Below are positions 6,253 to 62,356 of a stretch of DNA of 64,000 nt, piece by piece. Origin of the DNA: Candidatus Melainabacteria bacterium (GTDB lineage: Bacteria > Cyanobacteriota > Vampirovibrionia > LMEP-6097). A program made the position numbers and the translations under genes. The DNA is taken from the NCBI GenBank assembly GCA_005110385.1, contig DUDT01000006.1:9334-73333 (forward strand), read 5' to 3'. The notes under the pieces were generated by a model that saw only the letters and a list, made by a program, of their open reading frames with translations, had not been told where the DNA came from and searched no databases. Within the stretch, counting starts at the first letter, position 1. The number at the start of each line of letters is the position of its first letter.

Positions 6253-6444
6253 TAAGCACTATTATGTTAATGGTAACGATTTATCTATTATATATTGATA
6301 AGTCTATATGGGCTAGCCCTTTTTTGCCTCTATCTTACTTATCCCTTATACTATTGATATATCCTAATTAATAAGCAGGGTTCTAGATTAGTTTAAGGAC
6401 TGCTTATAAACGTGCAAGTTCAAGTCTAGTGAGGAGATCATTTT

Positions 6445-8055
6445 CTGCAAAGAGTACTTAAAGCTGAAGAAATAAAAAATATAGACGAAGTCGCTGTCGC
6501 TGAGCAGGGAATCTTCTATATGCAGAGAGCTGCTCAGGGGCTTTTTAAGTTGATAGTTGGGCTGATCGAAAAAAATCATCAGAATTTTCTTTTAAGTTTT
6601 CCGAGAATAACAGTTTTTGCAGGTAAGGGAAATAATGGCGGAGATGGTATTCTGCTTGCAGCAGAGTTACTAAAGCACGATTATAAAGTGAAATGCTATT
6701 CTACTGCTCACCCTAGCGAGTATCAAGGTGAATCAGCTCTTGCTTACCAGCTTTTCTTGCAGGCTGGTGGAAAGCTTGATGTGATTCATAATGACGCAGA
6801 TGTATTATCTGTAAAACATTTTCTTTTAAAGCAGGTAAATGGTATTTGGGTTGATGCATTGCTTGGAATTGGCTCTAGGGGTGCGGCTCACGGCATTTGT
6901 GCAAAGTTAATTGAGGTTATAAATTCTACTAAAGTGCAGAGTAAATCACTCTGTGTGTCTGTTGATATCCCATCTGGAATTGATGTTGATAGTGGTGAAA
7001 TGTTTGAACCTTCTATTAATGCTGATTATACGGTGCAGATGGGCTTCTCTAAAATATCTTCACTGTTTTATCCTGCGAAAACCAAGTATGGGCAGATAGT
7101 TTTTCAAGAATTAAAGTATCCTGTAGATTTGATTTCCCGCTCATCTTCTGTAAGGATTTTTTCAGTAGATCTTTCTATGGTTAAATCTCTTATTCCAGAA
7201 AGGAAAATAACTGGTTCTAAATTTGATCACGGCGTTGGGATGCTTTTAGCTGGTTCCTATGGTATGAGTGGAGCTGCGATGCTTTCTGGGAGTGCTGCTA
7301 TGCGTTCGGGGCTTGGTTTACTGCATGTTTTTAGCTATGAAGCTGTTTTACCAGTAATCGCAGCTAATCTCTGGGATGCTGTTTTGCACCCGATTATAGA
7401 GAATGCGAAAGCTAATATTGATTATATAAAAGATTTTCTTGTATCTCGGAAGATAGATGCTTTAGCCTTAGGTCCTGGTTTGTCGACGAATGCTAAAAGT
7501 ATTAGTCTTGTGAAGAATATTCTTGAATTGATGACTATGATTGACTCTAAACCATTAATTTTAGACGCTGATGCGATTAATGCTTTTGTGGGTTCTGCTG
7601 ATCTTCTAAAAGCTTATTCTGGTGAGCTTTTGATAACGCCGCATGCTAAAGAATTTTCTAGATTATTTCAAGAAGATATTTCAGAATATGCTCCTTATGA
7701 TAAGGCTAAATTTTTGAGTGAAACGGCTAAAAAGTATTCCTTGAATATACTCTATAAAGGAGCTCCTACTTACGTTGCTCGCAGTAGTGGTGAGGTATAC
7801 ATAGTTCCGACAGGATGTTCAGCCCTTGCTAAAGCTGGTTCTGGTGACGTTTTAACCGGTTTGATTCTTTCTTTTACGGTTCAAGGATTAGAACTGTATC
7901 AGGCAGCAATTCTTGCTGCTTATGTTCATAATCTCATGGGTTTACTAGCCGCAGAAAAGGATTCGGAGTATTCAGTTTTAGCTAGTGATTTGATTAAATA
8001 CATTGGTATGGCGATAGAAATTTTAAAACAGGATGATATGAGAAATTCTTTGTGA
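6445..8055 (+). CDS. nnr: Bifunctional NAD(P)H-hydrate repair enzyme (epimerase/ADP-dependent dehydratase)
   Basis: YjeF_N-like GKGNNGGDG and a C-terminal carbohydrate-kinase-like GSGDVLTG. The track start is ATG 6520, but the conserved N-terminus (LKAEEIKNIDEVAVAEQGI) is upstream. A CTG at 6445 lies 8 nt after GAGGAG, so the start is uncertain. Confidence 0.85.
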   Translation: MQRVLKAEEIKNIDEVAVAEQGIFYMQRAAQGLFKLIVGLIEKNHQNFLLSFPRITVFAGKGNNGGDGILLAAELLKHDYKVKCYSTAHPSEYQGESALAYQLFLQAGGKLDVIHNDADVLSVKHFLLKQVNGIWVDALLGIGSRGAAHGICAKLIEVINSTKVQSKSLCVSVDIPSGIDVDSGEMFEPSINADYTVQMGFSKISSLFYPAKTKYGQIVFQELKYPVDLISRSSSVRIFSVDLSMVKSLIPERKITGSKFDHGVGMLLAGSYGMSGAAMLSGSAAMRSGLGLLHVFSYEAVLPVIAANLWDAVLHPIIENAKANIDYIKDFLVSRKIDALALGPGLSTNAKSISLVKNILELMTMIDSKPLILDADAINAFVGSADLLKAYSGELLITPHAKEFSRLFQEDISEYAPYDKAKFLSETAKKYSLNILYKGAPTYVARSSGEVYIVPTGCSALAKAGSGDVLTGLILSFTVQGLELYQAAILAAYVHNLMGLLAAEKDSEYSVLASDLIKYIGMAIEILKQDDMRNSL

Positions 8056-35299: not shown

Positions 35300-38200
35300 T
35301 TAGTCGATACAGCCATTCCCAAAGGTAGAAGCCCCCGCAGAGAAAGCTTTTCTGAGTAAATCTAAATATTTTAGCGGAATGCTATTAATACTTAGTGGGT
35401 TTAATTCGTTCTCCTTGCAGTGGTGAATGATTTTACTGATACTGTAAGCAAGTCCTAGTCTAGGAACTACAGCATCGTCTCTGCGAGCTAATAGTAGATC
35501 CCTTTCTTCAGGATTATTCTGTAAAAGCTCTTTAAGGGAGATATTTTCTGGATCACTTACTTTATAACCTTTAACTTTAGCGATAAAGCTTTTAGTAGCT
35601 CGGTTACCGATAATTAGTTTCTGTAATAACTTATCCTCTTCTACTCTGTAATTAGGATTACTAGCTGATTCTATAATTTTCCTAGCTTCAGAATAAGCAG
35701 CCATATCTGCTGTAAATATGCCTCGCTCTAATGAGTCGATAATATGTTTTAGTAGGCGAGTTTCTTGTTTAGATTCAGGCTGATGATAGTGGTAGTTTAG
35801 TTCTTGTATAAACTCCGCATCATTATCTAATCCCTGATAGCCATAGAAAGATACGTGGTTACCACCGAGTAAATTAAACATCGCAGAATAAGGGATGGCT
35901 CTTATGTCAGCAAGCAAGCCTAATATTTCACTTATAGAAAGCTTTTTACTTAAAATATCTAAATCATTATTATATTCAGGGTCACTCAGTATCCCTTTAA
36001 CCTTAGCTCCAGAGCGGCTAGTAGGTCTGCTCGCTATATTAAAGAGATCTAAATAAATCAACGGTGATTTTATAACGTGTGCAAAATACTCTCTAAGAGT
36101 GTTTTCATTAGTGCAGATATTATCGTCATTTAAATCTAAGCCAAAGACTTCTTCCCTAAGCTGCTTTCTAACTCTTTCTATTAGAGAGTTTAAGAATTTT
36201 ACGAATTTAGGATCGAGTAGCAGTTCTTGCGGCTCTCCTAGTTTATCTTGGACGAGCTTTCTGCCTGAAATTTCAGAAGTAGCGAAAATAAATTCCTGTA
36301 TCATTTCATGGCTTTTAAAAAAAGAAATAAGCTGCTGAGCACCACCGCCCTGTAAGGTTCTTTCATAGTGAGCATTTGAGCCTATAGGCTGAGTGCAAGT
36401 GGCTGTGCGTTTGAATTCAAGCCCGCCACCACGCTCTATTGGTTCACCCCAGCCGTCGAAATTGATTAATTTAACTTGTTTGATTTTTTGTGATTCGTAA
36501 ATTCTTAGCCATAAAGCCTTTTCTTCTGAGCTGAAATTATTCTGAAAAAGATCAGAGAATGTATCTATTGCAAGCTTTATTGCTAGAGCTTCTTCTAGTT
36601 CAGGCTTGTTTTTTAATAAATTATGCCAAGCAGCAAGGGAAACTCCCTTGCTGCTTGTATTTAAGCTTTCCTCGGCTTCATTGAAAATATACTCATCAAG
36701 AAAGGCATTAAAAATTTCTGTAACGATAGTGTCAAGCTGCTTTGAGCGAAACATTTCCCACTGTGAAGCGGTGAAACCATTTTGTTTACCACTATCTGAA
36801 GGACCGCGCATTTTAATAAATTCGCCACGATGTCTAAGTAAGTATAAGCGCCAAGCTTTATTAGAGAGAGCTTCTATTGTACATTTATATGAATTCCTAA
36901 GATCGGAAATTTGTTCAGTTAAAGGAACTATTTCAAGTGAAGCTAATGTGTCTTCAAGGATCATCGAAGATCCTTGACTAGAACTGCTGATAATATATTT
37001 AGATAGTATTAAAGTGTTTAACATATCTTCAAAGCAGGTATTCATACTGATAATCTGTCTTTTAATGCCACCCGCACGAGTAAGGGAGAGAAGTTCTAAG
37101 GTCTGAATTGCTTTTTGGTTTAGTTTCCCGTCTGAGTCAGTTAATTTCTCTTTTAAATCTATTATTTTTTTCTGAGTCTCTTCTCTATTGAGTTCTGCTT
37201 TTAAGAGAAAATCGGTTTTTGCTGAAATGTCGCCGTAGACTTTGAAGCCAGATAAATTTTCTGTAAGAAAATTAATTACTTCGTTTCCTTGTCTTGTATG
37301 ACCATGTGAGCCGAATTTACCAAAAATTTCTATTTTTTTGATAATAATTTCTATTTCTTTACTGTTCACGCCTTCTTTATTTGCGATTATGGCTTTTAAT
37401 GGTGCAAGCAAAGTCTCTTCACTACAGTATTTGTCAAAATCAAAGTCAAAATTATAGTCACCAGTGTAGGCGATTCTCTGCCTTTGTGTTTCTAAAGAGT
37501 CGATCGCTTTAGCTAGAGGATGTAAAATTCTATGGTCTATCACCAGTCTGTAAGCTTGTTTGTTTGATTTGTAGACTGGGTTTTCTGTGATGATATTGTC
37601 GTAAAGTTTTTTAAAGTCACTGTTTATAAAAAAAGTTTTACTAGGCAGTTCTTTATCAAAGGTGAAGTCGTCGCTTAAAGTCTGCCAAAGCCTCTGTATA
37701 TCAGCAAAGTATTTTTTATAAAAGTGTAGATTTTCATTAATAAGCGTTTTAAAATGTTCTTCCTTGTTTACAGTTGGGTTTCCATCTATGTCGCGTGCTA
37801 CCCAGCTATGTAATTTAAAAAACTCTGGATGAATATAAAACTTCTCACCTAAGGCTTTACTAAGTTCATTGCCGAGTACGACTAGAGTCTCTGGGATGAT
37901 TTCATAAATTTGACTGACACTTTTTAGGAAATTCTGTGATTCATCAGAGGGTTTAAGCTTATTTTCATTATAAGGCTTAACTCTAATCATGTGGCTGATT
38001 GATATGGCGAGATCTTCTTTAATTAATTCAAGTTTCTCGTCGATCTTTTCTTGACTGGATTCATCTCGAATAGTGTCTGCTACAGAGTTTACTTTCTCTA
38101 TCATATTTGAAATATGATGCATATAATCTGGCTGTATACCAGCAGTAGGATGTGCTGTGAGAACGAGATTTGCTGATAAGTCTTTAGAGAATATCTTTAA

Positions 38201-38599
38201 AATCTCTTCCTTACTGAATTTATTTTCAAGAAAGAAGTTGATTAATTTTCTTGCGAAAAGTATTTCAGAGTTTTTATTTTTACTTACATCAGCACTCGCT
38301 GTGCTGGATTGGTTTAATAAAAGATAAGCTTCTAAAATCCAGGCGAATATCTTCGTTTCATATTCTGGTTTTTCAGAAATTTTACTAAAGATGGTAAGTA
38401 CTTTACTTAAATCTCTATCTTCGCTTTTTAATATATTTCTAAATGCACTTATATAGTCAATAAATTCATAAGCTAGCTGTTTACGTAAATTGCTATCAGT
38501 GCTGATATTACTATCGAAGTTAATCCTGTTCCAAATCTGCTTGCCAACGAGGTTCCCGATAATACGGTATAAGGATCTGATCGCAGGTTTAATTGCCAT
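35300..38599 (-). CDS. ppc: Phosphoenolpyruvate carboxylase, divergent
   Basis: VLTAHPT, GPSDSGKQNG (cf. GYSDSxKDxG), ERGGG, SRPTSRSG and RAIPY motifs occur in canonical order. The C-terminus ends FGNGCID rather than the usual ...NTG. Confidence 0.75.
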   Translation of the reverse strand: MAIKPAIRSLYRIIGNLVGKQIWNRINFDSNISTDSNLRKQLAYEFIDYISAFRNILKSEDRDLSKVLTIFSKISEKPEYETKIFAWILEAYLLLNQSSTASADVSKNKNSEILFARKLINFFLENKFSKEEILKIFSKDLSANLVLTAHPTAGIQPDYMHHISNMIEKVNSVADTIRDESSQEKIDEKLELIKEDLAISISHMIRVKPYNENKLKPSDESQNFLKSVSQIYEIIPETLVVLGNELSKALGEKFYIHPEFFKLHSWVARDIDGNPTVNKEEHFKTLINENLHFYKKYFADIQRLWQTLSDDFTFDKELPSKTFFINSDFKKLYDNIITENPVYKSNKQAYRLVIDHRILHPLAKAIDSLETQRQRIAYTGDYNFDFDFDKYCSEETLLAPLKAIIANKEGVNSKEIEIIIKKIEIFGKFGSHGHTRQGNEVINFLTENLSGFKVYGDISAKTDFLLKAELNREETQKKIIDLKEKLTDSDGKLNQKAIQTLELLSLTRAGGIKRQIISMNTCFEDMLNTLILSKYIISSSSQGSSMILEDTLASLEIVPLTEQISDLRNSYKCTIEALSNKAWRLYLLRHRGEFIKMRGPSDSGKQNGFTASQWEMFRSKQLDTIVTEIFNAFLDEYIFNEAEESLNTSSKGVSLAAWHNLLKNKPELEEALAIKLAIDTFSDLFQNNFSSEEKALWLRIYESQKIKQVKLINFDGWGEPIERGGGLEFKRTATCTQPIGSNAHYERTLQGGGAQQLISFFKSHEMIQEFIFATSEISGRKLVQDKLGEPQELLLDPKFVKFLNSLIERVRKQLREEVFGLDLNDDNICTNENTLREYFAHVIKSPLIYLDLFNIASRPTSRSGAKVKGILSDPEYNNDLDILSKKLSISEILGLLADIRAIPYSAMFNLLGGNHVSFYGYQGLDNDAEFIQELNYHYHQPESKQETRLLKHIIDSLERGIFTADMAAYSEARKIIESASNPNYRVEEDKLLQKLIIGNRATKSFIAKVKGYKVSDPENISLKELLQNNPEERDLLLARRDDAVVPRLGLAYSISKIIHHCKENELNPLSINSIPLKYLDLLRKAFSAGASTFGNGCID

Positions 38600-50109: not shown

Positions 50110-52281
50110 TTATAGTACGACTTTTGTGCTATTACTGAGCTGATTGCTAGCCATAGATCCTATGGTTTCAGGGTATCTAAATGTGTCTCCATTTGGGTGA
50201 AAATCTGTACCGAAGGTCCCATTTGGTCTAAATATTAAAGCTCCACCGTACGGGGATAGAGCTGCTCTTATCATTCCATCATTTCTAATATTTTGAGGTA
50301 CAAATCCCTCTCTCCTGCTGAGAGCTGCTTGAAATTTACGCTTTGAGGATGCAAAGTATTCCTGGGCTCTAAGTGTTTCTGGGCGATTAGCCGTTGGGAG
50401 GGTGAAAGCTGGCCTAGTATTCCTATTATTTTCATCAAATAATAACGTGACCCCAGAAGGATTAACTTGTGCAGTCAGCTTTTCTTGCCCTTCTTTATTT
50501 GGTCCAAATAAACTTATAATTCCATTATTAATCTCTAGCTTAAATGTTCCATTATCGCTCCTTAGACTAAAAGTCTCATAGGGTTTTCCTTTGGGAGCAG
50601 CTCCTGCTGTGTGGACGACGACGCCTCCCGGCATTTTCACTTCTTTTCCAGGAACTTCTTGATTTGGTAAAAATTCTAATTTAGTTGGATTTTCTGTATT
50701 AACTGTTATGGTTTGAGTGACCAATTGACTCTCTGGGATATCAGCGTCATTGTGATTCTTTCCGAAGCCTGCTTGCATAATATCTTGGTATTTTTCTTGT
50801 AAGTCTTTATCTGACAGCATTTCTGGACCAAGGTGCTTATTTCTTTCTACTGCTGCTGTGTATTCTTTGTGGCTGGGGTACTTACTTGGGTTTAGAATTT
50901 CTGATATTTCAGCTTGAGCTAAGTTTTCTCTGATTACGCTACTCATTGCTTCTTTTAATTTTATAGATAGTGCACTGTGGTTTAGGTGCTGAGTTGATGC
51001 TGTAAATATTTTTTCATATTTTTCATACGCTTCTGATTCTTCTATGTTAAGTCCCTCACTGAGCTTGGCGAAAAAATGGTCAATAAGCTGCTCTTTATTA
51101 AGTGTAGTTATGCCGCTCTCTATAATTCTATTAAATATTGGATCAAGCTTTGCGAGTATTTCTTTTTGTCCTGCAGCTTCTGGATGTATTTTTGCTATTT
51201 GTCTGTTTAAAGAGGCAGAAAGGCCGTCATCATCTGTTTCCTCAAGCGGGGGGCGAGAAAGTCCAGCTGTAAAATTACGAAAAGCTTTGGCAAGATCAAG
51301 AGAAGATTTGTTATCAGGATCTGATGTATTGCTTGTGTCAAGGTTCATCATGGCTTCTCGGATTTCTTCTGCCGATCTAGCTCCTTTAGGTATTTCCCAC
51401 TTAACTGTTATTTTAGGGAGGTCTCCATATTTTATGGTTAGTTCTGAGATTATATGTTCACCACTTGGCGAATTAGGATTAGGACTAAATATTCTTTTTA
51501 GTCTTAGATCTTTTGCTTCCATTTCGTCATAGACTGGCTTATAAATCATTTTTTGCTGAATTAAAGCTACTGCCTCTGCTGCATTTTGAGGGAGAGTATC
51601 TAAGAATTTTTGGTCAACTATAGCGCCTTCCCTGATCCATTCAAGTTTATTTTCTGGAGAGAGGTTATCTAAGCTCATAATTAACTGTAATGGGCTTGAA
51701 TTTAACCTAGTGATTATTTGAGAAGCTTTTACGGATTGAGCATGGTCAGTATTTTTTTCAAAAAGTCCTAATTTATCTTTACGTATAACATCTTGCTCTA
51801 GTGCGATTATGAGGGCACTGCTCAGTCCATAGTGTTTAGGATCGCCCATTATTGAAGTAAATTTTTGCTGACTTGTCATAGTGTCATCGATTAGTAAAGC
51901 CATTAACTCTTTACTTTTAAATTTAATTTCGGGGACTTCATTCTGGAAACTTAATTTTTGCGACCCAAAGGTACTAGACTGCCTACTCTCAGCAGGAAGA
52001 TGCATTGTTATCGCTTTTGCAGTACCCGCAGCATTACTAGTATCTTCTTCTGTAATTGGCAGTTTGGAGACAGCCATAAATCCCTGTTCATCGCCTTCTT
52101 TTGGATGAACTTCGTCCAAAGGTCTTAATGGAGTTACTATTGACGACATCCACCCTATTAGACTTCTAGGGTCTATTTTTTCGTGTTCTGCTAACCTCCC
52201 TGTTTGCACTGGAGATAATATTGTAGAGCCAGGCTCTACGGTATGTGGATAAAGGAATAAGTTTCGACTCGTAATTCCCAT
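50110..52281 (-). CDS. Large orphan protein (723 aa)
   Basis: Long uninterrupted ORF, visibly more GC-rich than its neighbours. No signal peptide, TM segment or known motif. Confidence 0.7.
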   Translation of the reverse strand: MGITSRNLFLYPHTVEPGSTILSPVQTGRLAEHEKIDPRSLIGWMSSIVTPLRPLDEVHPKEGDEQGFMAVSKLPITEEDTSNAAGTAKAITMHLPAESRQSSTFGSQKLSFQNEVPEIKFKSKELMALLIDDTMTSQQKFTSIMGDPKHYGLSSALIIALEQDVIRKDKLGLFEKNTDHAQSVKASQIITRLNSSPLQLIMSLDNLSPENKLEWIREGAIVDQKFLDTLPQNAAEAVALIQQKMIYKPVYDEMEAKDLRLKRIFSPNPNSPSGEHIISELTIKYGDLPKITVKWEIPKGARSAEEIREAMMNLDTSNTSDPDNKSSLDLAKAFRNFTAGLSRPPLEETDDDGLSASLNRQIAKIHPEAAGQKEILAKLDPIFNRIIESGITTLNKEQLIDHFFAKLSEGLNIEESEAYEKYEKIFTASTQHLNHSALSIKLKEAMSSVIRENLAQAEISEILNPSKYPSHKEYTAAVERNKHLGPEMLSDKDLQEKYQDIMQAGFGKNHNDADIPESQLVTQTITVNTENPTKLEFLPNQEVPGKEVKMPGGVVVHTAGAAPKGKPYETFSLRSDNGTFKLEINNGIISLFGPNKEGQEKLTAQVNPSGVTLLFDENNRNTRPAFTLPTANRPETLRAQEYFASSKRKFQAALSRREGFVPQNIRNDGMIRAALSPYGGALIFRPNGTFGTDFHPNGDTFRYPETIGSMASNQLSNSTKVVL

Positions 52282-52365: not shown

Positions 52366-53091
52366 ATGCATTTCGTTATTCGAATATTACTGCTTTTGAC
52401 TTTATGTGTAAGTTACGTCTCCGCCCATGAGCCACATTTAGAGCCGAGGCTGATAGAAGTTCAGGGTGCTGCTAAAAAGAAAGTCGCGCCAGATATGGCG
52501 ATCTGTAGTTTTTCTGTTATTAATGAAGCGAAGACGGCTGAAGAATCACGTTCTAAAAATGAGCTGAATGCTAAAAATGTTTTAAATGCTATTCGTAAAA
52601 TGGGCATCGCTGAAGCTGAGATTAATTTAGAGAGATTTAATATAGAGGAAGATCAGGAGTATAGCCAGAAAGAGCAAAAATATATATTTAAAGGCTATAA
52701 GGCGGTAAGAGCCTTTTCTGTAGAGGTTTTTAATTTAGATTTACTGCCTAAAGTAATAGCGACTGTCACTCAAAATGGTACTAATAGCTTAAATGGAGTG
52801 AGTTATACTTTGAAAAACCCTGAGCAGTACAGGCTTCCACTATTAAAGGAGGCGGTGTTAAATGCTAAAGCTAAAGCCGAAGCTATGTTAATACCAGTAA
52901 CTGCTAAATTAGGTCTAGTGCAGAAGCTGAGTGAAAGTTCTTCTTTTGATTATCCCTCACCAAGAGCGATGCCGATGATGCTTATGGCTAAAGCTGCTAA
53001 TGCTGAGAGTGATAGCGGTAGCGTAGAAGCTTATTCTGCTGGAACTGTAGAAATTACAGTTAATGTGCAGGCGAGTTTTAATATTCTTTAG
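52366..53091 (+). CDS. SIMPL/DUF541 family periplasmic protein
   Basis: Has a signal peptide. The pattern IEVQGAAKKKVAPDMA...V...A is typical of DUF541 (26-kDa periplasmic immunogenic protein family). Confidence 0.8.
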   Translation: MHFVIRILLLLTLCVSYVSAHEPHLEPRLIEVQGAAKKKVAPDMAICSFSVINEAKTAEESRSKNELNAKNVLNAIRKMGIAEAEINLERFNIEEDQEYSQKEQKYIFKGYKAVRAFSVEVFNLDLLPKVIATVTQNGTNSLNGVSYTLKNPEQYRLPLLKEAVLNAKAKAEAMLIPVTAKLGLVQKLSESSSFDYPSPRAMPMMLMAKAANAESDSGSVEAYSAGTVEITVNVQASFNIL

Positions 53092-53224: not shown

Positions 53225-56200
53225 TTATGACCTTCTCAAATCGAGTGTACATGGAAAGTCTGGATTAATATTAGCTGCTTTAAAAGCTAAATTCCCGGGG
53301 CTGTGCCCCATAGCCTGAAAACGTGATAAGCACCTGCCTTCAGCTTCATTTTCATTTACTGGTAGGCTTTCATAGCTTCTGCCACCGGGGTGCATAACAT
53401 GGTAAGTACAGCCACCTAGAGAACGATTTAATGTTTTATCTATGACATCGAATTTCAGTGGACTGTGTGCGGGGATAGTCGGGTGGAGGCTAGAGTAAGG
53501 TGCCCAAGCTTTAAAGCGCAGACCAGCCACGTAAACACCTTTTTTACTAGTGCTTTGCAGAGGTAGTTCTGTGCCATTGCAAGTTATGCAATGTCTAGAA
53601 TCTATATGACCAGTGACTTTTACTTCTAGTCTTTCTAAGGAAGAATCTACTGATCTGCTAACGCCAGCAGCCCCCAGTTCTTCACCTAATACTGGCCACG
53701 GCTCTAATGCCATGCGTAACTCAAGCTTTATGCTGCCAAGCTGTACTTCACCATATCTTGGGAAGCGAAAATCAAAGAAAGGCTCAAACCAAGAGCTTTC
53801 AAATTTAGCTGCTTTTTTCGGCATGCCAGAATTGAGGAAATTTAATACATCATTAAAATCTTCCCAAAGATAATGAGGCAGCATAAATCTATCATGTAGC
53901 TGTGTTCCCCAAGGAATAAGCTTGCCATTATATGGTGTCTTATAAAATTTAGCGATGCAAGCTCTAATTAATAATGCTTGAACTAAATTCATCTGTGGAT
54001 GAGCTGTCATTTCAAAACCACGCATCTCAAGAAGACCTAATCTGCCAGTGTTACTGTCTGGGCTGTAAAGTTTATCTATGCAGAATTCCGCTCGGTGAGT
54101 GTTACCTGTAAGATCGACAAGCAGATTTCTGAATAGTCTGTCCACTAGCCATGGCGGTATATCTTCACCATCTGGAATCTGCTCAAAGGCTATCTCTAAT
54201 TCATAAAGAGAATCATGCCTAGCTTCATCTATCCTTGGGGACTGACTAGTAGGTCCTATAAACATAGATGAGAAAAGATATGAAAGTGATGGATGATTCT
54301 GCCAGAAAGCGATCATGCTTTTTAATAAATCGGGGCGTTTTAAAAATGGGCTAGCTTCAGGGCTAGAAGCACCTAGTACTATGTGGTTTCCTCCGCCAGT
54401 ACCTACTCTGCGCCCATCAATTAAAAACTTTTCGGTGGTTAAGCGTGTTTTGTAAGCTTCTTCGTATATGGTGAAAGTAATATCTTTTAATTCTTCCCAA
54501 TTATGAGCAGGTTGTATATTTACTTCTATAACACCGGGGTCTGGTGTTACGCTTAGATGCGTGATTCTGAGATCCTTTGGTGGAGTGTAACCTTCAAGGA
54601 CGACTGGAATGTTTAATTCTTCAGTCGTTAACTCAATAGCGACTATAATCTCTAGGAAGTTCTCTATAAAGTTTAACGGTGGTAAAAACAGATGTAATAT
54701 ACCACCCCTGATTTCAGCACAAATCGCACTACGAACTAGACCGCAGGGGTCGTCTTTAAAATCTTTGTCGTGAATATTTTTCTTCGGATTTTTTAAGATA
54801 TGCTCGCGTAGCTGACTATAAGAAGCGAGTGGGGCTTTCTGCTCATAAGGACTAGGTTTCAGTAAAAATTCACCATGAGGGGCTACTACAGTGGGAAGGC
54901 TTTGAAGAGGTAAGCGTAAACCTATAGGTGAATCCCCTATTCCTAATGTTAGCCTTTGATTTCTAAACTCCCATCTATTACTAATCCATCTCTGCCTTCT
55001 TGGTGAAAAATGTAATGGTAGAACATAGCCCACTTCTTTATTAAGATTCTTATCTAATAGATGCTGCAAACGCTTACGCTCAGCAGCTTCATATGTATCA
55101 GCTTCTATGATCTCTTTCTCTATAGGTATTTTATTTTCTTGCCAGAGATAATATATAGTATCTTCAAAAGCTGGAATTATGTAAGATGATGGTATGGAAA
55201 GCTTTTTAGATAATTTTTCTAAAAAGATTTTACTGTTTTCTAAGGAAGTGCTGCTTTTATCTTTTTTAGATTTACTTTTAATTTCGGCAGTCGATATTTT
55301 AATTAAACCAGTGTTAGCCCAGATGGGTTCAGCATCCTTGCGCCAGAAACAGTGCATAGCCCAGCGAGGTAATATTTCACCTGGATACCATTTCCCTTGA
55401 CTGACCTGTATTAAAGCATTAGGCTGAAATCTTTCTTTTAAAGATAGCAGAAGCTTTTCCCCAAGCTGTTTCTTTTCATCGCTGAGAGCTGTGAAATTCC
55501 ATTCAGAACCAGAGCGATTATCAAGAGAGACGAAAGTCGGTTCCCCGCCCATAGTGAGCTCAATTTTAGATTTATTGAGATCTTTATCTATAGCTTTTCC
55601 AAGCAGGTCAATGCTGTTCCATTCATGGTCTGAATATGGCTTGGTGACTCGTCTGTCTTCATGAATACGAGTTATAGTCATCTCGTGGTGTAAAGTGCTA
55701 CCACAAGCTTCAAGTAAGCCGCTGATGGGAGCTGCACTAGAAGGGTTCGGTGTGCAGCACAAAGGTATATGACCTTCACCTGTAAAGAGACCAGATGTAG
55801 GATCTAGCCCTATCCAGCCAGCACCGGGTAAATAGACTTCAGTCCAAGCATGTAAATCAGTAAAATCATGGTCTGTACCAGATGGTCCATCAAGAGATTT
55901 AATATCAGCTTTTAATTGGATGAGATAACCAGAGGCAAAGCGAGTTGCTAAGCCGAGATGGCGCATGGCTTGGCAAAGTAACCATGCAGAGTCTCTGCAT
56001 GAGCCACTTTTAAGCTTGAGTGTCTCTTCGCAGCTCTGAATACCTTCTTCTAAGCGAATTACATATTTTAATGACTTGTTTAATTCACTATTTATGGCTA
56101 CCAAGAAATCTATAGTATTTAGTTTATTTTCTTTATTGAGCTGGGTTGATTCCGTGAAATCCTTTATCCAAGCCTTAAGTAAGCTGCCATTTTCCTTAAT

Positions 56201-56557
56201 TTCTAAATATGGCGATAGCTCTTCTCTTAATTCAGCACTATAGGAGAAAGGAAATTTCTCGGCGTAATCTTCTAGGAAAAAATCAAAAGGGTTAAAAACT
56301 CTAAGTTCTGTAATTAGGTCAACTTCAACAGAAAATTCTTTAGTCTCTTCCGGAAAGACTAAGCGAGCTAAGTAATTTCCAAAAGGGTCTTGTTGCCAGT
56401 TTATGAAATGTTTTTCAGGTAAGACTTTTAATGAATAGGACTGGATGTGTGATCTGCAATGGGGTGCTGGGCGCAATCTGATCGTCTGCATGCCAAGCTT
56501 AATCGGTCTATCATAGCTGTAGCGTGTAATATGGTGTAGTGCTGTTAATATACCCAT
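53225..56557 (-). CDS. Giant transglutaminase-family protein (Bact_transglu_N + transglutaminase core + DUF2126)
   Basis: 1110 aa. N-terminus HHITRYSYDRPI...IRLRP. Catalytic Cys in SGSCRDSAWLLCQAMRHLG; His/Asp in DLHAWTEVYLPGAGWIGLDPTSG. The long C-terminal region is typical of DUF2126. Confidence 0.85.
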   Translation of the reverse strand: MGILTALHHITRYSYDRPIKLGMQTIRLRPAPHCRSHIQSYSLKVLPEKHFINWQQDPFGNYLARLVFPEETKEFSVEVDLITELRVFNPFDFFLEDYAEKFPFSYSAELREELSPYLEIKENGSLLKAWIKDFTESTQLNKENKLNTIDFLVAINSELNKSLKYVIRLEEGIQSCEETLKLKSGSCRDSAWLLCQAMRHLGLATRFASGYLIQLKADIKSLDGPSGTDHDFTDLHAWTEVYLPGAGWIGLDPTSGLFTGEGHIPLCCTPNPSSAAPISGLLEACGSTLHHEMTITRIHEDRRVTKPYSDHEWNSIDLLGKAIDKDLNKSKIELTMGGEPTFVSLDNRSGSEWNFTALSDEKKQLGEKLLLSLKERFQPNALIQVSQGKWYPGEILPRWAMHCFWRKDAEPIWANTGLIKISTAEIKSKSKKDKSSTSLENSKIFLEKLSKKLSIPSSYIIPAFEDTIYYLWQENKIPIEKEIIEADTYEAAERKRLQHLLDKNLNKEVGYVLPLHFSPRRQRWISNRWEFRNQRLTLGIGDSPIGLRLPLQSLPTVVAPHGEFLLKPSPYEQKAPLASYSQLREHILKNPKKNIHDKDFKDDPCGLVRSAICAEIRGGILHLFLPPLNFIENFLEIIVAIELTTEELNIPVVLEGYTPPKDLRITHLSVTPDPGVIEVNIQPAHNWEELKDITFTIYEEAYKTRLTTEKFLIDGRRVGTGGGNHIVLGASSPEASPFLKRPDLLKSMIAFWQNHPSLSYLFSSMFIGPTSQSPRIDEARHDSLYELEIAFEQIPDGEDIPPWLVDRLFRNLLVDLTGNTHRAEFCIDKLYSPDSNTGRLGLLEMRGFEMTAHPQMNLVQALLIRACIAKFYKTPYNGKLIPWGTQLHDRFMLPHYLWEDFNDVLNFLNSGMPKKAAKFESSWFEPFFDFRFPRYGEVQLGSIKLELRMALEPWPVLGEELGAAGVSRSVDSSLERLEVKVTGHIDSRHCITCNGTELPLQSTSKKGVYVAGLRFKAWAPYSSLHPTIPAHSPLKFDVIDKTLNRSLGGCTYHVMHPGGRSYESLPVNENEAEGRCLSRFQAMGHSPGNLAFKAANINPDFPCTLDLRRS

Positions 56558-56654
56558 GAATTTTCCTAAATTTGTTTTGATAATCTAGGCTATCTATAAT
56601 ATAGTTGTTAATAAGCCAATATTACAAGGGCTTTCTTTATCTAAGGGTCGACTT

Positions 56655-58532
56655 TTGAGTGATATATTTGCACTAAATTTTGATGGCTTAAGTTCGCCAT
56701 CCATTAAATTGAAACTTTTTGATGAAGCTCAGGCGAGTATATCTACTGGTTGGGGGTTTGGTTGGTATCCGAACAATAATCAGGGAGCGATTGTTGCTAA
56801 AGACCCCGCGGCAAGAGATACTCGAATACTTACTGAAGCTTTGATGGATTGGGAGAAATTTCGTTCAACAGTCTTTATCTGTAAAGTGATGAAGGGTGCT
56901 AAAGGTTATACGAATCATGAGACGCAGCCATTTTCTCGCAGCTTTGCTGGCAGGGATTGGTTATTTATGCATAAAGGAGATTTAGATAAAACTAAATTAC
57001 AGGCTCTGCATTCTAATAAATCTAGATTTCTTGAGCCATTGGGGCGAACAGATTCAGAGATAGCTTTCTGTTATTTACTTGGCTTGATGCAGGATAGTAA
57101 TATTCGTAAGCTTGCTGACATTAAACCTGAAGTATTATTAGTTTGGTTTGAACAGTTTGACCAGCTTGGTAGTGCAGATATGATACTTACTGATGGTAAT
57201 AGCTTAGTTTGCTTTCATGGAACTAAGTCACAGACGAATATGTATTATACAAGAAGGAAGCCACCAAGCAAACTCAATGTCTTTGATTCAGAAATAGCTT
57301 CTATAGATTTAAAAGACCCAAGGGATACTTATAGAACGGCTTTAATATTCAGTTCCTCATCTTTTCCTCAAGGTGATTGGCATCAAATGCAGTCTGGTCA
57401 ATTACTGATTTCTCGAAGAGGCAGCTTGATTTGGGATAATAAGCAAGGCTTGCAAAATTTTAATTATGCTTACCAATCTGAAAACTCTTCTGATTTAATG
57501 GCTGGATCTTTAGTAGGTATTTCTGAACAACAGTTATCGGGTTCTGCCAGCTTATCATCTTTAAGTGACTCTACCCAGCAGGCTTTAGCGAGTCTTCCAC
57601 ATCTATCTATAACTAATCTTCGGGCAATGACACATGCACCTGATGGTCAAGCACTCTCATACAGAACTTTTGATGTTACTCACGTTACCAGTTACGAATA
57701 TGAACAGATAGTAGAGCACAGCACTCATAGATTTAGATTACAGCCGATAGAAGATCAATTACAGGAAGTACTTTTATCAAGCCTGAAAGTCTCTACTGGT
57801 GGTGAAGAGATTCGCTATGAGGATGTTTTTGGTAATCAATCAGTGCATTACAGTATTAATGTACCTTATGCTCAATTATCTATAGAGAGTAAAAGTCGAG
57901 TGAAGGTTTTTGCTTGTCCCCCAGATGATCACAGTCTTTCACGCAGGCAGACTACTATTCCGCTAGTCTGGATGCCGTGGCAGAGACAGATGATGATGGC
58001 TTATTTACTGCCACCGGAGTTGCCAGAAACTCAGCTTGTAGAATTGACTGACTATGCGATGAGCTTTGTGGAAAGAAATGATTACAGTCTACACCACACA
58101 TTAGAGGATATCAATCAGAGTATTTATAATGATTATAAATATGTCCAAGGTACTACTTCTTTGAATACGACACCATTTGAGGTTTATACTGCAAGAAAAG
58201 GCGTCTGTCAGGATTTCGCTAACTTATTTATCTGTTTAGCCCGTCTTCTAAATATTCCAGCTCGTTATCGCACGGGCTATATATATACTGGGGCTAACTA
58301 TGAAAATAAGCTGCAGTCTGAGGCTTCTCATGCTTGGGCTGAAGTCTACCTGCCTTATGTTGGCTGGCGAGGTTATGATCCGACTAATGGTTGCCCAGTA
58401 GCGCAAGATCATATTAGGGTAGCCTGTGGTAGAAATTATCGAGATGCTACGCCGACTTCAGGCACGATTTTCAAAGGCGGTGGTTCTGAAAAACTTTCAG
58501 TTACGGTTAGAATAGAAGAGGTAAATATTTAA
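56655..58532 (+). CDS. Fusion protein: YafJ-like class II (Ntn) glutamine amidotransferase domain + transglutaminase-like domain
   Basis: TTG start 7 nt after AAGGG. The N-terminus resembles YafJ/GATase_4 (GWGFGWY, ETQPF, GRTDSEIAFCYLL) but has Ser, not Cys, at position 2. The C-terminus has VTHVTSYEY...FRLQP, GVCQDFANLF and SHAWAEVYLPYVGWRGYDPTNG. Confidence 0.8.
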   Translation: MSDIFALNFDGLSSPSIKLKLFDEAQASISTGWGFGWYPNNNQGAIVAKDPAARDTRILTEALMDWEKFRSTVFICKVMKGAKGYTNHETQPFSRSFAGRDWLFMHKGDLDKTKLQALHSNKSRFLEPLGRTDSEIAFCYLLGLMQDSNIRKLADIKPEVLLVWFEQFDQLGSADMILTDGNSLVCFHGTKSQTNMYYTRRKPPSKLNVFDSEIASIDLKDPRDTYRTALIFSSSSFPQGDWHQMQSGQLLISRRGSLIWDNKQGLQNFNYAYQSENSSDLMAGSLVGISEQQLSGSASLSSLSDSTQQALASLPHLSITNLRAMTHAPDGQALSYRTFDVTHVTSYEYEQIVEHSTHRFRLQPIEDQLQEVLLSSLKVSTGGEEIRYEDVFGNQSVHYSINVPYAQLSIESKSRVKVFACPPDDHSLSRRQTTIPLVWMPWQRQMMMAYLLPPELPETQLVELTDYAMSFVERNDYSLHHTLEDINQSIYNDYKYVQGTTSLNTTPFEVYTARKGVCQDFANLFICLARLLNIPARYRTGYIYTGANYENKLQSEASHAWAEVYLPYVGWRGYDPTNGCPVAQDHIRVACGRNYRDATPTSGTIFKGGGSEKLSVTVRIEEVNI

Positions 58533-58554
58533 AAAAATTTAGTGGTGAAAATGT

Positions 58555-60015
58555 ATGAAGGAAACTAATTTAAATTTTGATAATTATAAAGCAGGTTCTT
58601 TCTATGATGAGCTTTTTGATCAAAACGGTCAAGCACATTTACATTCTAAGCCACTTATAGACCAGATTAATGCGTTATCTCATAAAGATCTGCGTCGCAG
58701 GCAGAAAGCCGCCGAACTCGCATTGCATCAGCTTGGCATAACCTTTAGTGTTTATGGTGATAAGAAAGGCACTGAGAAAATATTTCCTTTTGATGTTATT
58801 CCAAGAGTTATTCCAGCAAGTGAATGGCAGAATATCGAGAATGGACTTAAGCAGCGTATAGAGGCTTTAAACCTGTTCGTAGACGATATTTATCATGATA
58901 AGAAGATTCTAAAAGATAAGATCATACCTCAGGATTTAATACTCTCATCTAAGTGCTATTTAAAAGAGTGCGAGGGGTTAAATCCTCCACGTAAAATATG
59001 GATTCATATTACTGGTACTGATTTAGTAAGGGATGTAGATGGTGTATTTTATGTTTTAGAAGATAATCTTAGGTGTCCATCTGGTGTCTCTTACGTTCTG
59101 GAAAATCGAGCTATACAGAAACGCACTTTCCCACAGGCTTTTGCGACGATGAATGTTAGAAGAGTTGCTGATTATCCAGACCACTTATACGATACTTTAA
59201 AATACTTAGCTCCAGATCATATTGAAAAGCCTAAGATAGTTATCCTCACTCCGGGTATTTATAATTCAGCCTATTTTGAACATGCTTATTTAGCTCAGCA
59301 GATGGGTATTACTTTAGCCCAAGGATCAGATTTGGTAGTCGAGAATGATGAATTGATGCTTCGTACTACTAAAGGCTTTGAGAAAGTAGATGTGGTTTAT
59401 AGAAGAATAGATGATGATTTTCTTGATCCGAGTGTATTTCGTGAGGATTCTTTATTAGGTGTGAAAGGTATTATGAATGCCTATCGTAAAGGTAACCTTG
59501 CGTTAGCTAATGCGCCAGGTAATGGTATCGCTGATGATAAAGCTGTCTACGCTTATGTTCCAGAGATTATAAAATATTATTTAGGCGAAGAGCCCATATT
59601 ACCTAATGTTCATACTTATATCTGTGAGGACAAGAAGCAGCGTGATTATGTACTTGATAATTTAGAGAAACTGGTAGTTAAGGCTGTAAATCAGTCTGGT
59701 GGCTATGGGATGTTAATCGGTCCTAAATCTACACGTTCTGAAAGAGAGAGTTTTGCTGAAAAAATTAAAGCAAATCCAAGAGACTATATAGCTCAGCCGA
59801 CTCTTTCTTTATCTCGCTGCCCGACTATTATTGGTGATGATATTGAGGGTAGGCATGTTGATGTGAGACCTTACATCCTTTATGGTAAGTCGATTTTCGT
59901 TCTTCCAGGTGGGCTTACTCGTGTGGCTTTGGTGAAAGGCTCACTAGTAGTTAACTCTTCTCAAGGTGGTGGCAGTAAAGATACTTGGGTATTGGGTAGT
60001 GAGGGGAATTCTTAA
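58555..60015 (+). CDS. Circularly permuted ATP-grasp protein, type 2
   Basis: GITFSVYGD...IFPFDVIPRVIPASEW...GLKQRIEALNLFVDDIYHD and a C-terminal GGLTRVA, as in the CP_ATPgrasp_2 family. Confidence 0.9.
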   Translation: MKETNLNFDNYKAGSFYDELFDQNGQAHLHSKPLIDQINALSHKDLRRRQKAAELALHQLGITFSVYGDKKGTEKIFPFDVIPRVIPASEWQNIENGLKQRIEALNLFVDDIYHDKKILKDKIIPQDLILSSKCYLKECEGLNPPRKIWIHITGTDLVRDVDGVFYVLEDNLRCPSGVSYVLENRAIQKRTFPQAFATMNVRRVADYPDHLYDTLKYLAPDHIEKPKIVILTPGIYNSAYFEHAYLAQQMGITLAQGSDLVVENDELMLRTTKGFEKVDVVYRRIDDDFLDPSVFREDSLLGVKGIMNAYRKGNLALANAPGNGIADDKAVYAYVPEIIKYYLGEEPILPNVHTYICEDKKQRDYVLDNLEKLVVKAVNQSGGYGMLIGPKSTRSERESFAEKIKANPRDYIAQPTLSLSRCPTIIGDDIEGRHVDVRPYILYGKSIFVLPGGLTRVALVKGSLVVNSSQGGGSKDTWVLGSEGNS

Positions 60016-60027
60016 GTGTCAGAGCTT

Positions 60028-60966
60028 ATGTTAAGTAGAGTAGCTAATTCCATATATTGGATGAGCCGTTATCTAGAACGGGCTGATAGTATAGCTCGCT
60101 TTATAGATGTTAATCTTAAACTGATTTTAGATATAGCTTTAGATCGTGAAAATGTTCAGTGGCAGCCACTAGTTTTAGCTTCTGGAGATGAGGCTGATTT
60201 TTTTAAGAGATATAAGACTTTAGATCAAAAGAGAGTAGTACATTTTTTAACTTTTGATAATTTAAATCCTAATTCTATTCTTTCTTGTATTCTTAATGCT
60301 CGTGAAAACGCTCGTACAGTGAGAGAGATTATACCTACTGAATTATGGGAAACTATAAATGAGCTTTATCACTTTATACAGAAGTATAGTAAAAAGCGCC
60401 AGAAAGATAATCTTTTACCTTTGTATGCTCAGATAAAAGCTTCTAATAATGTGGCTTGCGGCCTTGTAGCGAATGCAATGCTCAGAGACCAGGCTTTGCA
60501 TTTTCTGCGTTTAGGGCAGATGATAGAGCGAGCAGATAAAACAGCAAGATTATTAGATGTTAAGTATTTTCATTTATTACCAAGCCCCGAATATGTCGAT
60601 TCTCCTTATGATGCTGTGGAATGGGGTGCTGTATTGCGTTCAGTAAGTGCTTTTCAGATGTATAGAAAAAAATATCATCAAGTTAATTATCGTGATGTTT
60701 CTGAGTTTTTAATTTTTGATCCATTTTTTCCGCGCTCAATAAACTACTGTGTTAACCAGGCTCTATCTTCACTTGGGGCTATTACTGATATGACTAAAGT
60801 TGATATGGGAGCTAAAGGTGAAATGGCGAAATTGCAGCAAATGCTCTTGCTGACTAGTGTAGATAAGGTTTTAGCTGAAGGACTGCATGAATTTATTGAT
60901 ATTTTTCAGTTTAATTTAAATATAGTGGATCAAGTAATTTATAGATCGTTTTTTGAGCTTAAGTAA
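60028..60966 (+). CDS. Alpha-E domain protein
   Basis: MLSRVANSIYWMSRYLERAD is the hallmark alpha-E N-terminus. GTG 60016 abuts the ATP-grasp stop and ATG 60028 is also possible. Confidence 0.85.
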   Translation: MLSRVANSIYWMSRYLERADSIARFIDVNLKLILDIALDRENVQWQPLVLASGDEADFFKRYKTLDQKRVVHFLTFDNLNPNSILSCILNARENARTVREIIPTELWETINELYHFIQKYSKKRQKDNLLPLYAQIKASNNVACGLVANAMLRDQALHFLRLGQMIERADKTARLLDVKYFHLLPSPEYVDSPYDAVEWGAVLRSVSAFQMYRKKYHQVNYRDVSEFLIFDPFFPRSINYCVNQALSSLGAITDMTKVDMGAKGEMAKLQQMLLLTSVDKVLAEGLHEFIDIFQFNLNIVDQVIYRSFFELK

Positions 60967-61027: not shown

Positions 61028-62356
61028 ATGGAAAAAATTACTAAGGATTTCTATCTTGTTGAGGATTGGGTTGATTTTGATAAATCATCTTTGGAATCCA
61101 TTTCCAGAGAATATTTCACAAAGAAAGGCATGGACGCTTTTGTTAAAAAGGGTAATCCACACATAATACCTCATCTCGTGACTACATCAATAGCACATGC
61201 TTATAATGTTGCTAGTATTTTTAAGAATAATATTCAGACTCTTCCACTTGATCGAAAATTAAGAATATTAGAATGTGGTTCTGGAAGCGGAATATTCTCA
61301 AGGCATTTTTTAATTGCCGCTCAGGACTTAGGTTTCTTAGATAGGGTAGAACTTATTGTTAGTGATTTTTCTGAGCAGAGCTTAAGACATATTAAAGAGC
61401 GTAAGGTCTTAGAAGGTTTTACTGAAAATGAACATTATAGTTTTTTAGTTTTGAATTTACTAGATGCGAGTACTGCGGTTAATCTAGATGGTGATTCTGT
61501 AAACCTTAAGGAGATTGATTTAGCTGTTTTGAATTATGTCATGGACGCATTACCTATGATTCCTTTGGCAAAAAACTCTGATGGATTATTCTCTAAACAG
61601 CAGATAAGAATTTTAAGTAAATCTGATAGTGAAGAGAACGACATTATTAACAATACCTCTTATCTTGCGAGTTTGATTATTGAGCCGCGCTGGGAGCCTT
61701 ATGACGTACATTCTGCAAGTGATTTAGAGCAAGAGTTCTTTAATGTATTTTCAGGCTTAACCGCTAGTCACTCTGAAGGTCAGCAATCTCGCTATTCTTA
61801 TGGGTCTCTTGCGGCTTTAAAGTCTTTAAATTCAATTTTGAGTGATAACGGGATGATCTATATTGCAGATATTCCATCTCCCTTGTTGACCAAGAAACAA
61901 AATCAACACTACATGTTATTTGGTAATTCTAAAGCTAATTATATTAATGAGGATTTAATGATAAGCTACCTGCAAAGCTTGGGATATTCTTCATTACAAA
62001 AAAAAGAGGCTGGTTTAGCAAGGATTATTTTATGTAAGAATGATTCTGCTACGACCAATAAAAAATTTCGAGAGTTTTTTTTAAATAACCATTACTTGGA
62101 GAGATTCATAGAGATTTTTACTATGTTTCAGGTAATTAAAGATTCTTCTCTATCTGATGTTGCAAAGATATTATTAGATAAATTACTGGAAATCGATAAC
62201 CAATCTTCATTAGCTTTAACTTTGCAAGGTTCATATCATTTGTTAAATAAAAACTATGAAAAAGCCTTGGAGCTTTATAAAGAAGCTAGGGAGATAGATT
62301 TTTCTGCCGCTTGGGATTTAGATTATAAAATCAGTGGCACGGAGATGTTCATTTAG
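61028..62356 (+). CDS. Class I SAM-dependent methyltransferase-like protein (MidA/DUF185-like) with a C-terminal TPR-like tail
   Basis: Motif I ILECGSGSGIF, an acidic motif II in LIVSDFS, and VLNYVMDALP resembling the NExxDAxP of the MidA/NDUFAF7 family. The C-terminal YEKALELYKEA is TPR-like. Confidence 0.55.
   Translation: MEKITKDFYLVEDWVDFDKSSLESISREYFTKKGMDAFVKKGNPHIIPHLVTTSIAHAYNVASIFKNNIQTLPLDRKLRILECGSGSGIFSRHFLIAAQDLGFLDRVELIVSDFSEQSLRHIKERKVLEGFTENEHYSFLVLNLLDASTAVNLDGDSVNLKEIDLAVLNYVMDALPMIPLAKNSDGLFSKQQIRILSKSDSEENDIINNTSYLASLIIEPRWEPYDVHSASDLEQEFFNVFSGLTASHSEGQQSRYSYGSLAALKSLNSILSDNGMIYIADIPSPLLTKKQNQHYMLFGNSKANYINEDLMISYLQSLGYSSLQKKEAGLARIILCKNDSATTNKKFREFFLNNHYLERFIEIFTMFQVIKDSSLSDVAKILLDKLLEIDNQSSLALTLQGSYHLLNKNYEKALELYKEAREIDFSAAWDLDYKISGTEMFI

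Follow-up and report, generated by a model that had tools for sequence, protein, structure and literature searches.

A transglutaminase-fused Ntn domain without the amidotransferase cysteine in a Vampirovibrionia variant of the ATP-grasp/alpha-E system

Introduction

Operons that unite an ATP-grasp protein, an alpha-E protein and a transglutaminase-like (TGL) peptidase, in some cases together with the proteasome-like N-terminal nucleophile (Ntn) hydrolase Anbu, were noted as COG2308-COG2307-COG1305 by Valas and Bourne in 2008, and were read by Iyer and colleagues of the Aravind group in 2009, according to later papers that cite them, as a peptide-ligase or peptide-tagging system. Here we compare with these operons a four-gene module at positions 53225-60966 of a 64,000-nucleotide stretch of DNA (the window; contig DUDT01000006.1 of a Candidatus Melainabacteria bacterium, positions 9,334 to 73,333), in which the TGL protein carries an additional Ntn domain. 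A first-pass annotation of the window had placed the module within the predicted system, and we agree with high confidence: it represents a variant, chromosomally encoded and cytoplasmic, of the ATP-grasp/alpha-E/TGL/Rv2566-type amidoligase-peptidase system already described. The variant with an Ntn-TGL fusion is new as far as we have searched; the system itself and its association with DUF2126 were already known.

The interest of this system, predicted in 2008-2009, is that it is widespread, linked to nitrogen limitation, tied to the evolution of the proteasome-like Anbu and present in Mycobacterium tuberculosis. Experiments up to 2017-18 found no peptidase activity for Anbu, and the papers of those years termed the physiological role unconfirmed. 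Phosphate release from ATP has been found for a homologous ATP-grasp protein, and in Pseudomonas putida under nitrogen limitation the canonical Anbu operon was the most strongly induced. In the literature searched to mid-2026 we found no report of a substrate or of a characterisation of the system.

The Rv2566 region of M. tuberculosis brings together a DUF2126 protein, an ATP-grasp, an alpha-E and a TGL (PMC2588565). Those who assigned the Rv2566 family placed it in the carboxylate-amine ligase (GS/GCS) superfamily, and favoured the synthesis of glutathione-like peptides over that of protein conjugates (PMC2588565). From the same organism, Rv2567 has been considered as a candidate gamma-aminobutyric acid (GABA)-trehalose synthetase, with a negative result. 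Rv2569c, which we take to be the TGL of the Rv2566 cluster, is placed in the YebA superfamily by the paper that reported it as a cell-wall protease that is blocked by serine- but not by cysteine-protease inhibitors.

The window module compared with described operons

The window module is the four-component set of Burkholderia and Mycobacterium in rearranged form, with an extra Ntn domain on its TGL. Its open reading frames (ORFs), whose lengths, strands and spacings are exactly those first annotated, are the following:

53225-56557, minus strand: DUF2126 gene (1110 aa; Rv2566-type, with an N-terminal TGL and a C-terminal DUF2126 domain)
56558-56654: divergent intergenic region between the DUF2126 and fusion genes (97 nt; presumed bidirectional promoter region)
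56655-58532, plus strand: fusion gene, Ntn (GATase_4 fold)-linker-TGL (625 aa; TTG start)
58555-60015, plus strand: circularly permuted type-2 ATP-grasp ligase gene (486 aa)
60016-60966, plus strand: alpha-E gene (316 aa; GTG start, alternative ATG at 60028)

Pfam recovered each of the domains claimed for these proteins (Bact_transglu_N, Transglut_core, DUF2126, GATase_4, CP_ATPgrasp_2 and Alpha-E). With the canonical operon the module has the same three core families in common, as well as the adjacency of ATP-grasp and then alpha-E. The TGL, however, is last in the canonical operon, as in Rhizobium and Sinorhizobium where the order is ATP-grasp, alpha-E, TGL, whereas in the window it comes first and bears a Ser-type Ntn domain; and where the canonical operon has an optional Anbu, the module has none, and has a head-to-head DUF2126 gene. 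The Rv2566-type cluster of M. tuberculosis and Burkholderia cenocepacia is alike in combining a DUF2126 TGL-ligase with ATP-grasp, alpha-E and TGL, but in B. cenocepacia (L082) the genes lie on one strand, in the order DUF2126, an ATP-grasp/alpha-E fusion and a TGL without an Ntn domain. Since linkage to DUF2126 is thus known from both M. tuberculosis and Burkholderia, the DUF2126 part of the architecture is not new.

An Ntn domain without the amidotransferase cysteine

The N-terminal domain of the fusion had been labelled a YafJ-like Ntn-amidotransferase, a label of which the fold survives and the activity does not. The fusion protein is divided as follows:

56655-57446, plus strand: Ntn domain (aa 1-264; GATase_4 4.7e-48)
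57447-57671, plus strand: interdomain linker, variable and Ser/Gln-rich (aa 265-339)
57672-58529, plus strand: TGL domain (aa 340-625; Cys518/His559/Asp575)

The GATase_4 alignment spans positions 1-259 of the 272 of the profile, and PDB 1te5 is matched at 3e-12; the NCBIfam EgtC equivalog TIGR03442 gives 32.2 bits and so falls below its cut-off of 218.65. In class-II amidotransferases, and in YafJ and EgtC, the nucleophile is an N-terminal Cys. The window domain starts TTG-AGT, encoding Met-Ser-Asp (Ser2 codon, 56658-56660), and therefore lacks the Cys that defines the class. Among the 79 genomic fusion homologues in which active-site residues were tabulated, the nucleophile position is Ser in 73, Gly in four (Nitrospina), Asn in one and Ala in one. 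The Ser is found in two configurations. In the first, which Vampirovibrionia, Legionellales, Chlamydiota and certain proteobacteria show, the start codon directly precedes it; in the second, it follows an N-terminal extension of 4-8 residues with a conserved pattern such as x-F-x-I-P-P-L-T/S-D or x-S-A-I-S/S-D (the stroke standing before the Ser), and because the codon preceding Ser is there no start codon, the extension must be genuine, either a propeptide or a strand at the N-terminus.

When 1.84 billion representative proteins were searched with the Ntn domain alone, only 667 relatives came up. Among those inspected, divergent fused members, at 30-40% identity, have Ser, sometimes Thr (e.g. 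MTQLL), or else Pro, Ile, Glu, Asp or Ala, whereas the free-standing YafJ-like relatives, at 25-29% identity, start Met-Cys in every case inspected; the switch from Cys to Ser/Thr is therefore specific to the TGL-fused clade.

Other residues of the active site have changed to differing degrees. Class-II amidotransferases use an Asn-Gly pair as oxyanion hole and an Arg for the substrate carboxylate, and the Asp of their TDSE motif binds the substrate alpha-amino group. The oxyanion Asn (of H-N-G) is replaced by Lys107 in the window (56973-56975; Lys107-Gly108) and in its clade, Asn-Gly being present in 65 of the 79 homologues; the conserved Arg, present in 50, is Met79 in the window. The TDSE motif is kept as T132-D133-S134-E135, its Asp occurring in 77 homologues and its Glu in all 79. 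Most fused members thus resemble YafJ/EgtC (GATase_4; 1te5) in fold and in the motifs GWG, TxPF, G-x-TDSE and H-N-G, but differ from them in having Ser or Thr for the Cys nucleophile and in being fused to a TGL, with the two further exchanges, Asn to Lys and Arg to Met, in the window. The fused partner is a TGL peptidase and not an ammonia-using synthase. Judged by its sequence, then, the domain has the right fold for YafJ/GATase_4 but is not a glutamine amidotransferase.

The ratio of nonsynonymous to synonymous substitution rates (dN/dS) against four close relatives is 0.013-0.025 for the Ntn domain and 0.017-0.030 for the TGL domain, and the Ntn domain is still 55% identical to distant homologues. 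By these measures the window Ntn domain is under purifying selection as strong as that on its TGL neighbour, and it is clearly functional, be it as a Ser-type hydrolase or as a binding module. With a start codon or a propeptide of 4-8 residues standing right before the Ser, it would be compatible with an Ntn hydrolase of the Ser/Thr type. We tentatively propose, as a reading that could well prove wrong, that the TGL-fused proteins form an undescribed branch of GATase-II/YafJ Ntn proteins whose Ser/Thr nucleophile is exposed by Met removal or by propeptide autoprocessing, and which would serve the DUF2126/ATP-grasp/alpha-E system as an Anbu-like hydroxyl-Ntn hydrolase; on that view, the glutamine/gamma-glutamyl-binding motifs that it has kept might suggest that the substrate of the whole system is a gamma-glutamyl-type amide. 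No earlier description of such a Ser/Thr-type Ntn domain was found in the literature searched, which did not include Iyer et al. 2009.

The comparison with Anbu needs some care. Both have an Ntn fold with a hydroxyl N-terminal nucleophile (Thr1 in Anbu, a putative one in the fusion) and both are genetically tied to the TGL of the system. Anbu, however, belongs to the proteasome beta-type branch of Ntn proteins and not to GATase-II, has its own gene behind that of the TGL and assembles into a multimeric ring or helix; this analysis found the fusion Ntn domain and Anbu to be unconnected in sequence. The earlier suggestion that the domain occupies the slot that Anbu takes elsewhere holds as a functional analogy only, and not for position, as the Ntn domain lies N-terminal to the TGL in the first gene and Anbu is encoded by the fourth.

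The TGL half and the spread of the fusion

The rest of the fusion has the Pfam domains Bact_transglu_N (5.6e-16) and Transglut_core (1.5e-20), and matches PDB 3isr at 5.6e-16. The triad C518/H559/D575 is present in 79 of 79 sequences, and the TGL shares about 33% identity with its free-standing counterpart in the canonical operons of Rhizobium and Sinorhizobium. Mean identity to homologues is 55-78% for the domains and 21% for the linker, which is the one fast-evolving part of the protein and differs by a 19-aa indel from that of a 96%-identical metagenomic protein of 606 aa (P0001).

A search of a large protein collection with the fusion gave 1622 matches, the best 120 of which are all about 600-650 aa long, come from independent sources and show the same set of three Pfam domains, at about 60% identity to the protein of the window. 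Their hosts include Caenarcaniphilales, Rickettsiales, Kiloniella and Zavarzinella. A scan of genomes, one per species, gave 510 fusion relatives, and the locus counts below refer to the best 80 of these. In all 80 loci the fusion is a full-length, uninterrupted ORF. The fusion is thus real, as first annotated, and the possibility that it was an assembly join is ruled out by the three-domain architecture of all 120 best homologues and by the uninterrupted ORF in the 80 genome loci.

Hosts among the 80 loci include Vampirovibrionia, Alpha- and Gammaproteobacteria (Legionellales among the latter), Nitrospinota, Nitrospirota, Verrucomicrobiota, Chlamydiota and Polyangia. Alphaproteobacterial hosts are many, with Asticcacaulis, Hyphomonas, Kiloniella, Hyphococcus and Algimonas represented. 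No fusion was found in plasmid records; plasmids carry the free-standing TGL only, at about 33% identity.

Linkage across genomes

The four genes are linked in other genomes as well. In 63 of the 80 loci the DUF2126 gene stands upstream of the fusion in head-to-head orientation, the gap having a median of about 145 nt; four Nitrospina-type loci have it upstream but on the fusion's strand. In 47/80 loci the fusion is followed directly, on its own strand, by ATP-grasp and alpha-E (median gap about 31 nt), and in six more these two genes are found elsewhere within 10 kb. From these counts the tightest pair is DUF2126 and the fusion, while ATP-grasp and alpha-E make up another pair that can be separated from it.

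When the 2118 flanking ORFs of at least 90 aa from the 80 loci were clustered, no fifth gene and no Anbu proved to be conserved across genera, no direct Anbu profile having been run. Nor did any transporter or regulator gene recur from genus to genus in these flanks. Synteny beyond the module was seen only within the genus Asticcacaulis, the flanks otherwise consisting of ordinary, lineage-specific genes. The gene after alpha-E is usually on the opposite strand, so that the operon usually ends there. With no gene conserved in the flanks and alpha-E usually last, the module amounts to the four genes described; Anbu is not among them, and neither is any tag-like ORF of at least 90 aa.

One locus has an unusual neighbourhood. 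In Hyphococcus aureus (L025), genes for a lysine-2,3-aminomutase-like radical-SAM protein, two Ddl-like ATP-grasp proteins and an HDAC-GNAT fusion occupy positions 741-6389 on the minus strand, directly 3' of the DUF2126 gene. The set looks like a separate small-peptide or beta-lysine pathway; as replacement ligases for loci in which ATP-grasp and alpha-E are missing it is ruled out, being present in no other locus.

The ligase components

The DUF2126 protein consists of two domains:

55799-56539, minus strand: TGL domain (aa 7-253; Cys187/His236/Asp252)
53234-55711, minus strand: DUF2126 domain, putative GS/GCS-superfamily amidoligase (aa 283-1108)

Its Pfam matches are Bact_transglu_N (1.7e-25), Transglut_core (9.3e-17) and DUF2126 (E=0; profile 1-826 of 826). 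The triad C187/H236/D252 is invariant in 41 sequences, in agreement with the earlier statement that it is intact, and the architecture of N-terminal TGL plus DUF2126 is found in all of the best 120 of 8000 homologues. Calling the protein a paralogue of the fusion that sits head-to-head with it was right as to the arrangement, but the two have the TGL domain alone in common, at about 26% identity, and their association was already on record.

In an AlphaFold2 model of the protein (mean pLDDT 75.8, pTM 0.70), Foldseek found the TGL structure 3isr at 2.8e-12 and, more weakly, two kinds of ligase with E values between 9e-4 and 6e-2, namely glutamine synthetases (9e-4 to 5e-3) and gamma-glutamylmethylamide synthetase (GmaS); the probability of these weaker matches is up to 1.0, but their target-normalised TM-score is about 0.3. 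A sequence-profile search of DUF2126 against the PDB gave no match to solved ligases. The modelled, weak glutamine synthetase-like fold signal is consistent with, and short of proof of, the published assignment of DUF2126 as a ligase (PMC2588565). In three loci (L017, 7195-9877; L029, 6596-9855; L073, 5512-8277) the DUF2126 gene was matched by tblastn in two separate pieces, which may reflect frameshifts, pseudogenes or assembly errors.

The ATP-grasp protein is a full-length match to CP_ATPgrasp_2 (1.2e-169) and to PDB 3n6x (3e-162). The profile search of this protein against the PDB matched 3n6x alone and gave no remote sequence tie to glutathionylspermidine or glutathione synthetases. Alpha-E (Pfam Alpha-E, 1.5e-88) is all-helical in a confident AlphaFold2 model (pLDDT 82.6, pTM 0.85), and the PDB search returned no solved fold relative, the best E being 0.41. 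The protein is internally duplicated: its halves align at E=6e-8, and each opens with an ER(A)D helix (YLERAD, aa 19-24; MIERAD, aa 169-174).

A possible amide-bond cycle and the alternatives

A precedent is glutathionylspermidine synthetase/amidase (Gss) of E. coli, in which a papain-fold, CHAP-type thiol amidase and an ATP-dependent amide ligase act on the same bond. The DUF2126 protein, and likewise the pair of fusion and ATP-grasp, follow the same logic of ligase plus amidase; the analogy is mechanistic only, as there is no detectable sequence homology and the amidase is of TGL type here and of CHAP type there. On the simplest reading of its parts, the module might likewise run a make-and-break cycle on an amide bond, to which we give an even chance at best. 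Two ATP-dependent carboxylate-amine ligases, the ATP-grasp protein with alpha-E as its presumed partner and the glutamine synthetase-like DUF2126 domain, would form the amide through an acyl-phosphate. Each would be paired with a papain-fold Cys-His-Asp TGL that hydrolyses or transfers the bond, ligase and amidase being combined in one polypeptide in the case of DUF2126 and the ATP-grasp being served by the TGL of its operon. The bond would most likely be a gamma-glutamyl-type peptide or isopeptide, and the acceptor could be a small peptide, an amine conjugate or a protein side chain. A gamma-glutamyl-type bond is the best first guess because the Ntn domain descends from gamma-glutamyl/glutamine amidohydrolases and has kept the binding motifs in most members. 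Derived from amidohydrolases of the YafJ/EgtC type by a change of nucleophile from Cys to Ser (Thr in some members), with the Ser exposed by Met removal in the window (TTG-AGT) or presumably by cleavage of the 4-8-residue propeptide elsewhere, this domain may act as a second amide hydrolase or as a module for gamma-glutamyl/glutamine recognition. The fusion, ATP-grasp and alpha-E genes would form one transcription unit, with the DUF2126 gene diverging from a common control region of 97 nt.

Several observations weigh against this cycle or against parts of it. Pull-downs in Yersinia gave no stable complexes among the operon proteins, and the reported cell-wall location of Rv2569c misfits a cytoplasmic cycle, the protease result being hard to reconcile with the fold and with cytoplasmic partners. 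In about 22 of the 80 loci DUF2126 and the fusion occur without ATP-grasp and alpha-E within 10 kb, and in a single clade of freshwater alphaproteobacteria (L009-L015) the fusion stands by itself; the module can thus come apart into its two halves. The likeness of DUF2126 to glutamine synthetase is structurally weak (E about 1e-3, target-normalised TM-score about 0.3), and the tie between the ATP-grasp protein and glutathionylspermidine synthetase comes from the depositor's name for 3n6x, no sequence link having been found. Finally, the window Ntn domain has exchanged three residues of the canonical set (Ser for Cys, Lys for Asn, Met for Arg), and the Ser itself is swapped in several lineages for Gly (Nitrospina), Asn, Ala, Pro, Ile, Glu or Asp; not every member can therefore be catalytic through this domain, and the window copy may be inactive.

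The last point leads to the view that the Ntn domain is a non-catalytic pseudoenzyme whose only role is to bind or place the substrate, or to control the TGL peptidase fused to it. We take this to be a credible prospect, if not a probable one. Besides the residues just listed, the variability of the Ntn site beside an invariant TGL triad (79/79) speaks for it; against it stand the predominance of Ser (73/79), its alternation with Thr, and the placing of a start codon or short propeptide exactly before the Ser, as a free N-terminal nucleophile would need. The very strong purifying selection also argues for catalysis, though a binding role would fit it too. A different proposal, the published prediction (Iyer et al. 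2009, as cited in later papers), would have the ATP-grasp protein tag proteins with amino acids or peptides, as TTL does on tubulin, and the TGL and Ntn domains remove the tags in the manner of deubiquitinases. The peptidase-type TGL triads are intact and the Ntn domain stands beside a TGL, as Anbu does in other operons, but the module gaps of 97, 22 and 0 nt contain no tag-like small ORF and no flanking ORF of at least 90 aa is conserved across genera. EgtC, the nearest characterised relative of the Ntn domain, acts moreover on a small molecule, although the match to the EgtC model is weak. Together with the preference of the Rv2566-family assigners for peptide-metabolite synthesis (PMC2588565), this makes protein tagging unlikely in our estimate, though far from negligible, and we lean towards a small molecule or peptide as substrate over a protein side chain.

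Nitrogen scavenging or protein turnover, in which the hydrolases of nitrogen-limited cells would free ammonia, glutamate or peptides, with the Ntn domain as a glutaminase, draws on the induction of the Anbu operon in P. putida and on the fact that the Ntn fold is the glutaminase fold. We nonetheless think it improbable: the Cys needed for class-II glutaminase chemistry is missing, and a purely degradative role leaves two ATP-consuming ligases unexplained. Identities of 57-74% between phyla suggest horizontal transfer, as might be expected of an anti-phage defence or mobile accessory system; yet none of the four module proteins has a PADLOC match, the surroundings are of the housekeeping kind and the flanks are ordinary and lineage-specific with no variable island, so that such a role seems very improbable indeed. 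That the module is an artefact, whether an assembly join or a set of accidental neighbours, is barely conceivable given the three-domain architecture of the best homologues, the uninterrupted ORFs and a linkage that extends across phyla.

Returning to the amide-bond cycle, the variant adds to the system a domain related to characterised enzymes that act by cleaving gamma-glutamyl or glutamine amides. The clade-specific change of Cys to Ser/Thr and the gamma-glutamyl ancestry together supply concrete first substrates and mutants, without solving the system itself, and cultivable hosts of the variant exist in Asticcacaulis, Kiloniella, Hyphococcus and Algimonas. Should the Ser be catalytic, it would represent new chemistry for the class-II amidotransferase fold.

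Gene spacing and genomic surroundings

The gaps along the module are 97 nt (divergent), 22 nt (fusion/ATP-grasp) and 0 nt (ATP-grasp/alpha-E). Because Met5 of alpha-E is invariant across 40 homologues, ATG 60028 is an alternative start for this gene, and would make the last gap 12 nt rather than 0. The three plus-strand genes had been described as tightly packed and hence co-translated: the packing is as described, but spacing alone does not show co-translation, and what it suggests is co-transcription or translational coupling of the fusion, ATP-grasp and alpha-E genes. Scans for promoters and terminators gave results at chance level; in the 97-nt region the best sigma-70-like match is 10/12 (56577-56605, plus strand), the number of matches region-wide being that expected by chance. 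Hydrophobic stretches of the kind that typically span membranes are absent from all four module proteins.

The window surroundings are housekeeping genes (NadA, LpxA-like, phosphoenolpyruvate (PEP) carboxylase, NDH-2), and the closest genome is a metagenome-assembled genome of Vampirovibrionia with a 97%-identical fusion (L001). The genes 3' of the module encode a methyltransferase/TPR protein and a MetA-pathway protein. Both matches of the former (61028-62356, plus strand, 442 aa) are weak, as is its PADLOC match to mad2 (9.8e-6). This gene follows alpha-E in L002 and L003 and is missing from L001, and is thus a variable insertion; its absence from so nearly identical a locus rules it out as a part of the module.

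On the other side, a SIMPL/DUF541 gene (52366-53091, plus strand) borders the DUF2126 gene at its 3' end in one clade, made up of the window, L001, L003 and L004. Asticcacaulis loci (L021 and 18 others) have one to three SIMPL genes in tandem, within 5 kb and on the side of the DUF2126 gene, the copy at 5582-6469 on the minus strand of L021 being directly downstream of the DUF2126 gene on the same strand after a 66-nt gap. No SIMPL gene lies within 5 kb of the module in other lineages among the 80 loci, and its proximity to the DUF2126 gene may be coincidence or a loose association. The neighbouring ORF (50110-52281, minus strand, 723 aa) has no Pfam or NCBIfam match, and its sole relative among the 80 loci, at 66% identity, is in L004. 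The PEP-carboxylase-like ORF (35300-38599, minus strand, 1099 aa) matches Pfam PEPcase over aa 66-621 alone (profile 49-593 of 919), its C-terminal half being without a match.

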